Part shown: positions 53,403-56,840 of the stretch, piece by piece | Position numbering within the stretch: the first letter of the stretch is position 1 | How the letters are laid out: each line of letters opens with the position of its first letter | Origin: Spirochaetota bacterium | Lineage (GTDB): Bacteria > Spirochaetota > Leptospiria > Leptospirales > Leptospiraceae | Reading direction: 5' to 3' | DNA length: 64,000 nt | NCBI GenBank assembly: GCA_052033835.1 | Contig: JBPOJG010000025.1 | Coordinates: 1,763-65,762 of the forward strand | Notes under the pieces: generated by a model | The model's input: only the letters and a program-made list of their open reading frames with translations | Database searches by the model: none | What the model was told of the DNA's origin: nothing | Translations under genes and position numbers: made by a program

Positions 53403-54470
53403 ATGGTTATCTTTTGGGACGGATCAGCAAAAAAACTCAATGGGAAATGTATGATCATTGTTCTTTTCGTATCCAGAAAGGATAAACCTTGGAAGAAGAA
53501 AGCCAGGAAACGCGCAATGCAGAGTCTGGAAAAAGGAATCGACTGGATTAAGAACGAGTCAAAGAAATACAAAGTAAAGCTTGATTTTGATTTTATTTGC
53601 CTCAATATGGATGAACATATTTTCATTAAAAAAATTCCTAAGATTGAAGCTCCCTATGAAGATATGGAAGTTGTCATGTTCAAGGTTTTGAAAAAGCTCG
53701 GATACGAATCTCCTGAGGATTTTTATGAAAAAATGAGTATAGAATACAAAGACACAAGTTTTCATATCATCTTTTTTGCAAATGAAAAGGGAAGACCTTA
53801 TATGCATTATGTGGATATGAACAATGAAAAGAAGATGCTTGAATTTAATTTGATTTTCAAGGAAAATGGAAAGATTGATCCGATGACTGTTGTCCATGAA
53901 ACACTTCATGCTTACAGTGCTGTTGATCTCTACAACGTGAAAGAAACTAAAAAAGCTCAGAAAATTTCAGACCGGGTTGAAAAAAAATTTCCAAATGAAG
54001 TGATGCTCTGCGCTTCTGAGGATATTGAAAACCCTGAACTTTCTGAGCTGACCGCATTTCTGATCGGATGGCACAATAAACCGAAAGACTGGTATGCTTC
54101 TATGATACAGCCGGACGATCAGGAAGAGGTGGATTTTCTTCTGAAACATCATGAAAGCTTTGATGAAAAAGGATTTGTAATTATAAAAAAAGAGAAAGAA
54201 GTTCTTTGGTACGAATCTGATGAATTTACCATAACTAGGATAGAAATTAATGATAATCCTGAACTTGTTCATTGGAAGCAGGTAGATAAAAAAACAAAAG
54301 AGACTGTCGAATATTGGGAAAACAGTCAGGACAGCTATTATTATAATATGACAGATAAAAAGTCTCTTCTTACAATTGCAATTCCCAAAAGAAAAAAGGG
54401 ATACTGTTACAAAGAGGATGCTGAAGGCGACTATATTAAGACAGTTAAGGTAAGGAAAATCAGTACCTGA
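53403..54470 (+). CDS. HExxH (zincin-like) protein of an unassigned family, paralogue B
   Basis: AGGAG 7 nt upstream. MVIFWDGSAKKLNGKC, VHETLHAYSAVDLYN, NEVM, TAFLIGWHNKPKDWY. Confidence 0.75.
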   Translation: MVIFWDGSAKKLNGKCMIIVLFVSRKDKPWKKKARKRAMQSLEKGIDWIKNESKKYKVKLDFDFICLNMDEHIFIKKIPKIEAPYEDMEVVMFKVLKKLGYESPEDFYEKMSIEYKDTSFHIIFFANEKGRPYMHYVDMNNEKKMLEFNLIFKENGKIDPMTVVHETLHAYSAVDLYNVKETKKAQKISDRVEKKFPNEVMLCASEDIENPELSELTAFLIGWHNKPKDWYASMIQPDDQEEVDFLLKHHESFDEKGFVIIKKEKEVLWYESDEFTITRIEINDNPELVHWKQVDKKTKETVEYWENSQDSYYYNMTDKKSLLTIAIPKRKKGYCYKEDAEGDYIKTVKVRKIST

Positions 54471-54478
54471 ATAATTAA

Positions 54479-54510
54479 CTTTACGCACTTCGTGTTTCAG
54501 GTGAGTGAGA
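54479..54510. repeat. Modular intergenic repeat, half module A
   Basis: ctttacgcacttcgtgtttcaggtgagt lies 8 nt after the paralogue B stop and matches the right half of the 35733 and 44575 hairpins. Confidence 0.7.
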
Positions 54511-54627
54511 GATGCAGTGATCCTGCCCTCAAAGTCTTTCTCGTTCACTCTGCGGAATATCTTTTCATAAAATAAAGTCGCTCAGCTGCTCTTAAAAAAA
54601 ACTTTCCTTGTCCTGTTCATCTCCTCC

Positions 54628-54882
54628 TCAGTGCTGAACAGGCTTGAATGCAAATGCGATCTGTTTTCCTGAAACATTTTCAGAAACTTTCATATCAACA
54701 TAGCTTGAACGCATTACTACAACTGGATCATCATCAAGGAATAAAGAATATACCTCTTTTAATAAAGCAGGAGAATTAAAAACTTCTTTTATTACATTTT
54801 CTGCTTCGCCTACTGAAGTTCGTTTTCCACCTGACAGTAGTTTTTTAATTTTTCCTTTCATGATATATATGCCTTCCCCCAT
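54628..54882 (-). pseudogene. N-terminal fragment of a HEAT-repeat (AlkD-like) protein
   Basis: The 84-aa ORF LSGGKRTSVGEAENVIKEVFNSPALLKEVYSLFLDDDPVVVMRSS follows the N-terminal pattern of ~220-aa HEAT-repeat proteins. It is truncated after about 70 aa. Confidence 0.35.
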
Positions 54883-54989
54883 TTACTGAACAAAAAAAAC
54901 TTATTTCCCAAAACAAATTATTTTCAGCTTCTTTAAATAGGAAGAAACAGAAAAACTCTGATCTTCTTTCTCCACACGCTGATTTCCTT

Positions 54990-55600
54990 TTTATGCCTGG
55001 TTCAGTTTCTGTCAAGCACTTCCTCTAGGAAGCCTTGGTGTCCAAATACGCTTCAGCAGGACGAAGCTTCAGTGCCTTGCCTCTCCCTTCAAAAACTGTG
55101 TCAATTTCGGACTCCCGTAGAGGGGATGTCTTGCATATTCACGTTCAATCAGATTCATTATCATTATATTGTATTCCGACTCTCCGACCGGATTGAAATA
55201 AAAACGTGACCGAGAGAGGCCGAGAAGCTTGCACTGCTTCTGTATCGGCAGTCAGCTCTCAAGTTCAATAAGGCTTTTCCTTTCCGACTGGGTCAGTTCA
55301 GAAGTCTTTTTAAGATAATCATTCTCAACTTTCAGCTTCCGGATTTCGCGGTAAAGATCATCTATCTTCTTTTAGGATTCCTCCATCTCTTTCCCGTCTG
55401 TCTTCATGAACATCTGAGGAAATTTCTCGACAGCTTCCTTCTTCCATTTCAAAATCATATTTGAATGAATTTTGCAGTCTGAGGACAGCTTACCTATTGT
55501 CCTCACGTCCCGTATCGCTCCAAGGCAACCTTCGCTCTGAATGCAGGCTCTTAGTTTCTTCTTCCTCTCATTGCTTCTCCTTTCTCTGGATTTGCAATTT
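54990..55600 (-). mobile_element. Decayed IS3-family transposase remnant (orfA plus the first ~60 codons of orfB)
   Basis: My minus-strand translation gives EPAFRAKVALE / AIRDVRTIGKLSSDCKIHSNMILKWKKEAVEKFPQMF...KKIDDLYREIRKLKVENDYLKK...IQKQCKLLGLSRSRFYFNP...MIMNLIEREYARHPLYGSPKLTQFLKGEG. It is interrupted by TAA and TGA stops and frameshifts, and no intact ends are seen. Confidence 0.75.
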
Positions 55601-55652
55601 TTTTATACCTTTTTTTTGCTTTTTTACTGTCTCTTTTTTGAGGGGAAACTAT

Positions 55653-55700
55653 AAATTGAATGATGATTGTAACTACGAAGTTACGATGAGCAGTTACGAT
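55653..55700. repeat. Modular intergenic repeat, short module E copy
   Basis: aaattgaatgatgattgtaactacgaagttacgatgagcagttacgat is the 45771 copy minus its internal B-like insert. Confidence 0.75.
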
Positions 55701-55781
55701 TTTTCTCATATTGATCACTGACTTTCCTTGACAGTTTCTTCTGTGCAATTAATATGTCTTCCAATTTATTCAGGAGCATTT

Positions 55782-56840
55782 ATGAGAGCGTTTTGGGGCG
55801 GGTCAGCAAAGAAACTTAATGGGAAATGTCTTGTTGTCGGTATCTTCATTTCAGAAGAGGACAAGCCATGGACAGAAGACGGGAGAAAGAATACTTGGAA
55901 GAATGTAAAGAATGCTATGAAATGGATTCAGAAAAATGCAGAAGAATATGATGTAGATTTGGAATTTGAATACAAATGTATGAATGAAGAGGATGATATT
56001 GTTCTCGATAAAATTCCATTATTTGAGGATCCGATGGAAGAAGCAGATGCGGCAATCAGTAAAGTTCTTGAGGAACTGGACTTTGAATCTCCTGCGGATT
56101 TTTATGAGAAACTTAAAGAAGAGTATGAAGATCACAGTCTGCATATTATGTTTTTTGCGAACAAGGACAGCAGAGCATATATGAACTCTGTGGAAATGAA
56201 CAATGCCGGCAAGGAACTGGAATACAATATGATCTATACCGAAGAGGGAATTGTCAGTTCTTTCGCTGTTGCCCATGAAGCTCTTCATGTCTACAGTGCG
56301 ATGGATTTATATAATGTGAGTGATACTCCTGAAGGTGCTGCCGCCGAAAAAAGAACAACGAAAAGATATCCAAAAGAAGTGATGATGACTGCAGTTGACG
56401 ATGCGGAAGAGACTGAGCTGTCTGAGGTTACAGCTTTTCTGATCGGCTGGCATAATGAACCTAAGCAGTGGTATTTGACACTGATGCAGCCTGGTGCTGG
56501 AGAAGTGATGACCTTCCTTCTGAAAAATCATAAGAACTTTGATGAAAATGGAGATATCAGAATTGAAGAGGAGGAGGAACTGGCAAAGTATAAGTACAAA
56601 GGAGGTGAGTTTGTCCGTATGAAAATCAACGGAAGCGATGATTTTATCCATTGGAAGCATTTGGACTCGGATTCTGAAGAAGAAACCGAATACTGGGAGG
56701 AAAGCAGCGATGAAGATTTTTATTATCTGGCGCACAAGAAATCTCCGAAGGAAATCTCTGTTCCTAAAGAAAACGGTACGTGTTTTCAGATGGATAAATC
56801 AGGAGAGTTTCAGCCTTGGCTTGAAGTGAAATTGGTCTAG
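55782..56840 (+). CDS. HExxH (zincin-like) protein of an unassigned family, paralogue C
   Basis: AGGAG 6 nt upstream of the ATG at 55782. MRAFWGGSAKKLNGKC, AHEALHVYSAMDLYN, KEVM, TAFLIGWHNEPKQWY. Confidence 0.75.
   Translation: MRAFWGGSAKKLNGKCLVVGIFISEEDKPWTEDGRKNTWKNVKNAMKWIQKNAEEYDVDLEFEYKCMNEEDDIVLDKIPLFEDPMEEADAAISKVLEELDFESPADFYEKLKEEYEDHSLHIMFFANKDSRAYMNSVEMNNAGKELEYNMIYTEEGIVSSFAVAHEALHVYSAMDLYNVSDTPEGAAAEKRTTKRYPKEVMMTAVDDAEETELSEVTAFLIGWHNEPKQWYLTLMQPGAGEVMTFLLKNHKNFDENGDIRIEEEEELAKYKYKGGEFVRMKINGSDDFIHWKHLDSDSEEETEYWEESSDEDFYYLAHKKSPKEISVPKENGTCFQMDKSGEFQPWLEVKLV

Follow-up and report, generated by a model that had tools for sequence, protein, structure and literature searches.

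We analyzed a 64,000-nucleotide (nt) stretch of DNA from a Leptospiraceae genome, hereafter the window, which covers bases 1763-65762 of one contig in a source assembly of 6.05 Mb and 552 contigs and carries three paralogous genes, referred to here as A, B, and C. The results presented below argue, with a probability of roughly two in three, that A, B, and C are functional two-domain paralogues in which a metzincin-like peptidase domain is joined to a beta-barrel without a signal peptide, and that the insertion sequence (IS) remnant between B and C arrived later. The N-terminal ~235 residues are predicted to form a metzincin-like zinc-metallopeptidase domain, with H165 and H169 as zinc ligands, E166 as general base, and D175 as third ligand (numbering of C throughout). 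According to this prediction, D175 is followed by Y177 two positions on, by a near-invariant Met at +26, and then by a TAFLxGWH helix. The C-terminal ~100 residues would form an eight-stranded antiparallel beta-barrel of the PliC/MliC, MoaF, or lipocalin type, which may bind a substrate or partner or may gate the active site.

Three paralogues share an extended HExxH motif

A whole-genome search revealed A, B, and C as the sole copies in the source genome, all located on one contig, with A ~45 kb from the B/C pair. Both B and C lie on the plus strand and are separated by a gap of 1311 bp (54471-55781), consistent with the shared orientation and 1.3-kb distance reported in a preliminary description of this DNA. 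The two proteins are 44% identical over 353 amino acids (aa), corresponding to their full length (BLASTP, E = 1e-109), and A, which was located by tblastn at 8131-9219, is 41% identical to C and 34% identical to B. The preliminary description had counted 22 identities among 35 residues in the N-terminal block of A and C, a number that falls to 20 of 35 when the block is aligned without gaps. Its observation that all three copies keep the HExxH block and a common start was confirmed. All three retain HE(T/A)LH within an extended HExxHxxSxxDxY motif, with a Met 26 residues later (in A, within the Met-turn-like stretch PNEVM, M208) and the TAFLxGWH helix. The proteins start with MQTIW, MVIFW, and MRAFW, and this M-x-x-(I/F)-W start is shared by the orthologues and by every one of the ten full-length homologues.

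The start codons were also evaluated. AGGAG is found 5-7 nt upstream of the ATG in B and C, and in-frame stops are found 12-18 nt upstream of the start in A and B. An alternative start of C at an upstream TTG (55728), which would add 18 residues, was rejected on the grounds that AGGAG precedes the ATG and that the M-x-x-F-W start is invariant in all homologues; the TTG start is further disfavored by the fact that A and B cannot be extended. In terms of composition, B is the Lys-rich, fast-evolving copy, with an isoelectric point (pI; 8.7 for its N-domain alone) above the 4.3-4.6 of A and C and a GC content below their 0.40-0.43.

Alignment of ten full-length sequences showed that H165, E166, L168, H169, Y171, A173, D175, L176, and Y177 are invariant, as are E199, M201, T217, A218, F219, L220, G222, W223, and H224. 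Across 139 aligned relatives, H165, E166, H169, D175, Y177, and M201 are conserved at 90% or more. In terms of the metzincin consensus HEXXHXXGXXH/D, the H, E, H, and D are therefore invariant here, with Gly replaced by Ser in A, B, and C. M201, 26 residues after D175, is the Met-turn candidate.

The N-domain belongs to a large unannotated family

A word-based homology search recovered only nine proteins, of which one, from Leptospira idonii, is named ('hypothetical protein'). When 1.84 billion representatives were searched exhaustively with a profile, 1241 matches were obtained at E ≤ 1e-3 (586 at E ≤ 1e-10), each standing for a cluster at 50% identity. About 16 of the 1241 matches span the full length and the rest cover residues ~5-232 only. 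The N-domain-only relatives are 240-290-aa proteins, many with a hydrophobic N-terminal leader or a lipoprotein-like signal, and further N-domain-only matches are situated at the C-terminus of ~575-aa proteins. All named relatives (from Bacteroidia, Bacteroidales, Treponema, and Parasediminibacterium) are annotated as 'hypothetical protein'. Judged from their sequences, the members of the wider N-domain family appear to be mostly secreted proteins of ~265 aa that carry HExxHxxGxxDxY. Two larger members of ~580 aa, P0022 and P0028, contain two tandem peptidase-like domains; in P0022 the first domain copy has lost HExxH (VARQVLKLYGGVDTY) and the second keeps it, whereas in P0028 the motif is present in both.

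In the Leptospiraceae form, the signal peptide is missing and the extra C-terminal eight-stranded beta-barrel is present. A Leptospiraceae/Spirochaetota subclade would have lost the signal peptide and gained the barrel, and because the signal peptide has been lost, its members probably act in the cytoplasm. In a further genome of the same family (G098), a 282-aa open frame at C1:590143-590832 matches the N-domain only (profile positions 6-232) and is found beside a full-length copy in the same genome; therefore, both architectures coexist in Leptospiraceae.

Predicted structure

An AlphaFold2 model computed from a shallow alignment had a predicted local distance difference test score (pLDDT) of 80.6, and the model computed from the 139-sequence alignment reached a pLDDT of 95.4 and a predicted template modeling (TM) score of 0.90. 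The N-domain is predicted to adopt an alpha/beta fold with strands at 14-25, 60-66, 118-126, 133-138, and 145-152, an active-site helix at 160-169, and further helices at 183-195 and 215-220. A linker helix (240-252) then leads to a C-terminal domain of eight consecutive beta-strands. The best Foldseek matches of the N-domain were fragilysin, TACE, ADAM8, and snake-venom metalloproteinases, with E values of 0.03-0.2 and TM scores on the target of 0.40-0.50. The best matches of the C-domain were small eight-stranded barrels, namely 5hal (probability 0.97), PliC (TM score on target 0.64, root-mean-square deviation 3.5), lipocalins, and MoaF-like proteins. A search of a viral fold library gave no significant match.

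Comparison with known metallopeptidases

The M12B adamalysins/reprolysins (snake-venom metalloproteinases, ADAMs, and fragilysin) provide the best N-domain fold matches, and sub-threshold matches to Reprolysin_2 to _5 were found in relatives. The order of elements is likewise common to both, with an HExxH helix, a ligand 10 residues past the first His, a conserved Met, and a C-terminal helix. In contrast to M12B, the predicted third ligand here is Asp rather than His, A, B, and C have no Pfam match, and the TM scores do not rise above 0.40-0.50. Moreover, the proteins described here have no prodomain, disulfide pattern, or signal peptide, and possess the additional C-terminal beta-barrel.

M6 immune inhibitor A/PrtV and M7 snapalysin resemble the proteins studied here in having the extended motif with Asp as third ligand, and a Tyr two residues after the Asp is also present in the M6 and M7 families. 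The HEXXHXXGXXD motif is reportedly associated with both ADAMDEC1, an ADAM, and PrtV, an M6 protease, in studies of these proteins. By contrast, M6 enzymes are large secreted multidomain proteins, and the matches to them lie far below the curated cut-offs, with none for A, B, or C. Snapalysins are proteins of ~130 aa in which the Met follows the Asp after ~10 residues, as opposed to 26 here. Both M6 and M7 have been placed in subclan MA(M), and the conserved Met of snapalysins ~10 residues after the third ligand has been described (PMC3890501). DUF1025 mini-zincins, which are without demonstrated catalytic activity, also carry HEXXHXXGXXD with Asp as the third zinc ligand (PMC3890501). Like A, B, and C, the mini-zincins (DUF1025/M94, Acel_2062) and the archaemetzincins (M54) are leaderless, presumably cytoplasmic zincins. 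However, the Met-turn is absent from mini-zincins, which stop directly behind the third ligand, and neither group gave a sequence or fold match to the proteins studied here.

Profile scans of the 139 relatives revealed weak links to the same families. Reprolysin_5 was matched below threshold in 19 of the 139 (best E = 5e-6) and Reprolysin_4 in 7, and further sub-threshold Pfam links were to Reprolysin_2, Reprolysin_3, and Peptidase_M91; the gathering thresholds of Reprolysin_2 to _5 were not reached, and A, B, and C had no match to them at E ≤ 1. The NCBIfam M6 domain TIGR03296 gave weak matches in 39 of the 139 (best E = 6e-5), all below the cut-off, with no match for B and C and with A scanned as a row of the 139-member alignment. 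SVAGG (NCBIfam) was matched below threshold in 57 of the 139. Peptidase_M7 (snapalysin) gave no Pfam match, and the domain here comprises ~235 aa as against a single domain of ~130 aa. The remaining traces for A, B, and C in Pfam and NCBIfam were regarded as noise (Terminase_7; Peptidase_M91, E = 0.85; DUF406; Spiro_T2SS_lipo, E = 0.08). A PDB match to Rab11, obtained with a shallow profile (E ~0.002, 70 residues), vanished with the deep profile and was judged spurious.

Several observations weigh against the assignment of A, B, and C as metzincin-like cytoplasmic peptidases. The three proteins reach no sequence threshold in Pfam, NCBIfam, or the PDB, and no Foldseek match in the PDB was obtained at E ≤ 0.001, the best N-domain TM scores remaining at 0.40-0.50. 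In the structure-based family assignment that the preliminary description had proposed, the top N-domain matches are metzincins, with weak scores. In addition, A, B, and C have Ser where metzincins have Gly, and a missing signal peptide may be compatible with non-classical export.

A more far-reaching version of the proposal holds that the N-domain represents a large undescribed family of the metzincin clan (at least 1241 clusters) that is characterized by HExxHxxGxxDxY and a Met-turn and has no representative in Pfam, NCBIfam, or the PDB, that its Leptospiraceae/Spirochaetota branch is cytoplasmic, and that the fused barrel serves as a gate or substrate adaptor, which would amount to a new mode of latency. 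Taken as a whole, we consider this version tentative and rather doubtful.

All three copies are under purifying selection

The ratio of nonsynonymous to synonymous substitution rates (dN/dS) was estimated against orthologues of two related lineages. Compared with a same-genus genome (G001), the ratio was 0.08-0.11 for A, 0.04-0.13 for B, and 0.07-0.08 for C. Compared with a closer relative, a contig from activated sludge, it was 0.09-0.15 for B and 0.08-0.09 for C, at unsaturated dS values of 0.3-0.6. The ratios were alike in the N- and C-terminal parts. With dN/dS at 0.04-0.15 in each domain, all three copies are under purifying selection, as the preliminary description had supposed.

The gene was detected in 5 of 114 species-level genomes of the family, representing 3 of 14 genera and always in 2-4 copies, and in 0 of 16 genomes of the same order outside the family. 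This copy-number survey agrees with the earlier suggestion that these are accessory genes. G001 contains a fourth, unlinked copy (C24:8690-9730, minus strand) in which HExxH has become YETLH and one in-frame TGA is present; this copy is decaying and shows birth-and-death turnover, and the orthologues of A, B, and C are constrained. The closest intact relative of the decaying copy is P0016. Because the distribution is patchy, the gene is multi-copy, and turnover includes a decaying copy, the family is accessory and evolves by birth and death, unlike a housekeeping peptidase.

The same distribution would also suit exported effectors or toxins, that is, a leaderless protease that leaves the cell non-classically, for example through a type I-like C-terminal signal, and acts on competitor or host proteins, with paralogues diversifying under conflict. 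The family is accessory, patchy, and multi-copy, with turnover that includes a pseudogene, and most of the wider family is apparently secreted. Moreover, proteins of the C clade terminate with an acidic and then hydrophobic residues (EVKLV, EVKIV, DVKLV), and in one Spirochaetota metagenome-assembled genome (MAG) the gene sits between putative PIN-domain genes. However, A, B, and the other homologues do not share this C-terminal tail, no secretion, immunity, or defense genes adjoin any copy, and PADLOC gave no match for A, B, C, and four relatives. Furthermore, the dN/dS values indicate constraint rather than an arms race. An exported effector is therefore less likely than a cytoplasmic peptidase, because secretion or immunity neighbors are absent, neighborhoods are not conserved across taxa, and constraint is strong, and we regard export of this kind as improbable.

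Gene neighborhoods were examined in three other taxa, and no conserved neighborhood of the family gene was found. In the Spirochaetota MAG (KLAP116), the open reading frames (ORFs) that flank the single family gene (L015, 5448-5882 and 8128-8529) have N-termini that look PIN/VapC-like by eye, which hints at an accessory, toxin-antitoxin-rich region. In the window, a 519-aa helical protein without a Pfam or NCBIfam family is encoded at 9263-10822 on the plus strand, starting 40 nt after A. It was rejected as a conserved partner of A, as it adjoins A only in this genus, with 73% aa identity in G001, and does not neighbor the homologues of the three other taxa. Its PADLOC match to JetB (E = 0.007) is probably noise.

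The replacement of the metzincin Gly raises the alternative that A, B, and C are non-catalytic, being pseudo-peptidases or binding or scaffold proteins in which the motif is kept for structural reasons and the Gly-to-Ser change disables the metzincin turn. In the 149 listed representatives, 143 HExxHxx?xx? motifs were counted; 135 read HExxHxxGxxD, and the Gly is replaced in the other 8 (Ser in 5, Asn in 2, and Thr in 1). In addition, the proteins lack a prodomain and any other known latency device, an unusual condition for an active intracellular protease. Against this, neither the four catalytic or ligand positions nor Y177 and M201 vary, purifying selection is strong, and the sole copy without the first His (YETLH) also has a stop codon, so that loss of the motif goes with decay of the gene. 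Given that the catalytic residues do not vary and that the single copy lacking one of them is itself disrupted, a pseudo-enzyme is less likely than a peptidase; we rate it slightly below export and as unlikely overall.

The B-C duplication predates the IS insertion

Orthologues of A, B, and C occur in conserved synteny in G001, with nucleotide identity of ~75-84% in the flanks and ~79-82% in the genes. The orthologues of B and C are in tandem there, 276 bp apart and with no IS, and their spacer shares with the window just its last ~70 nt, which correspond to the C upstream segment including the TTGACA box. In the activated-sludge relative (90% aa identity for B and 94% for C), the B-C spacer is 584 bp long and contains other repeat units, no IS, and no HEAT fragment. 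In the maximum-likelihood tree, B and C formed sister clades (support 99/98), each holding orthologues from both relative lineages, with B on a long stem (0.92 vs. 0.22) and A branching separately.

Because the sister clades of B and C each contain orthologues from these lineages, the B-C tandem duplication is old and predates them. Since both relatives have the B-C tandem with unrelated, IS-free spacers, the IS landed in an existing pair, and the IS3 remnant and gene fragment represent a later, lineage-specific insertion of ~1.2 kb of foreign material. The B-C spacer is remodeled in every lineage examined. The phylogeny and dN/dS analysis recommended in the preliminary description thus supported its view of selection and, with the duplication placed before the IS insertion, not its view of origin. 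The proposal made there that the genes were duplicated or acquired through mobile elements, here the IS3 element and the repeat modules, is largely refuted and very improbable: although an IS3 remnant and dispersed repeats do sit between or before the genes and the spacer differs in each lineage, the tandem is IS-free with conserved flanks in two relatives, B and C are 44% identical in sister clades older than these lineages, the GC content of C and A equals that of the surrounding DNA, and the family gene gave no match in plasmid collections and one weak match, to an unannotated contig, in phage collections.

In the proposed course of events, B and C arose by the old tandem duplication, and divergence was then asymmetric, with B changing from an acidic into a near-neutral, Lys-rich protein. 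Such a charge shift after duplication suggests a changed target. Much later, the variable spacer received an IS3 element and a piece of a HEAT-like gene, which decayed there; this happened in this lineage alone, and C kept its own conserved upstream segment.

Content of the spacer and flanking repeats

The features of the window considered here are listed in Table 1.

Table 1. Positions of the paralogues and of the spacer and flanking elements in the window.
Feature	Position	Strand	Description
Paralogue A	8131..9222	+	363 aa; motif HETLHAYSAMDLY, nt 8644-8682; M208; pI 4.3
Paralogue B	53403..54470	+	355 aa; motif HETLHAYSAVDLY, nt 53895-53933; M201; pI 6.8; GC 0.35
Paralogue C	55782..56840	+	352 aa; motif HEALHVYSAMDLY, nt 56274-56312; M201
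Paralogue C, predicted domains			N-domain, residues ~1-235; linker helix; C-terminal 8-stranded beta domain, residues 264-351
Dispersed repeat module	53292..53392		18-nt tandem units and ~50-nt core with hairpin; up to 38 other genomic copies
Dispersed repeat module	54468..54527		Directly after B stop codon; 14 other copies (assembly BLAST)
84-aa ORF	54628..54882	-	Plausible N-terminal fragment (~60 aa) of a helical, HEAT-like protein of ~179 aa
IS3-family remnant	55069..55602	-	OrfA in two frames; OrfB reduced to its first ~60 aa; no DDE (rve)
Repeat module	55529..55697		3-6 other copies, several at contig ends; overlaps 5' end of IS remnant
Promoter-like site	55728..55755	+	TTGACA-16-TAATAT; consensus match only

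The decayed IS3 transposase noted earlier between B and C was recovered as three stop-to-stop pieces on the minus strand, in three frames, which encode the OrfA helix-turn-helix, then a leucine-zipper-like part, and then the start of OrfB. Of the 369 positions of the NCBIfam IS3 transposase model NF033516, these pieces matched 15-90 and 102-161, with E values of 3e-7 and 3e-5. When the pieces were compared with plasmids by tblastn, 662 records annotated as IS3 transposases were matched at 35-39% identity; a Pfam scan of the joined pieces gave no match. Thus, the remnant keeps the OrfA helix-turn-helix and leucine-zipper region followed by the OrfB N-terminus in the order usual for the IS3 family, but differs in covering only model positions 15-161 of 369, in having an extra frame break, and in having no DDE domain. 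Because the DDE half is absent and an extra frame break is present, the piece appears to be a dead, non-functional remnant derived from the family.

No intact copy of the spacer IS was found in the assembly, where related copies may be collapsed and short matches occur at contig ends alone. Three such contig-end segments, in C369 (end, ~7985-8089), C371 (1-127), and C75 (5573-5720), are 78-84% identical to 55510-55655 of the window. Related IS3 copies probably break the assembly, and the absence of an intact copy may be an assembly artefact.

The 84-aa ORF had been described as a truncated HEAT-repeat gene. Its truncation was supported, as its first 60 residues resemble the N-terminus of a 179-aa protein from a same-family genome (37% identity, pairwise E = 5e-10). 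The HEAT label itself stays below threshold: the 179-aa relative matched HEAT_2 at E = 0.0045 (17.7 bits vs. a cut-off of 27.7) and HEAT at E = 0.058, and the 84-aa ORF had no Pfam match to HEAT or HEAT_2. A truncated HEAT-like gene is therefore a plausible reading of this sequence.

Repeat modules had been said to precede each gene immediately. This is true of B, where the repeat stops 10 nt before the ATG, but not of C, where it stops 85 nt before the ATG, or of A, before which BLAST against the whole assembly found none. The module before C is probably IS-end sequence. The module before B consists of 18-nt units resembling AGCGGCTTTCAAGTTTGC followed by a core with a GC-rich hairpin, is found at dozens of genomic sites with many cores 94-100% identical, and looks like a repetitive extragenic palindromic (REP) element or a miniature inverted-repeat transposable element (MITE). 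In the activated-sludge relative, the B-C spacer is filled with 18-nt units related to these. Rfam gave no match in 52800-57200. The promoter-like site falls inside the segment of ~64-100 nt upstream of C that is conserved in both relatives.

Discussion

The IS and gene-fragment part of this region is ordinary, being a variable intergenic spacer that collects junk DNA. The source is an environmental Leptospiraceae of the activated-sludge type, with no evident link to disease. If biochemistry agrees, the three paralogues would add an uncharacterized and fairly large family to the metzincin clan. For annotation, more than 1000 clusters of 'hypothetical protein' in Bacteroidia, Treponema, and Leptospiraceae would become testable putative metallopeptidases. 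Moreover, the leaderless, barrel-fused architecture raises the question of how an intracellular metzincin would be controlled and what its substrate would be.

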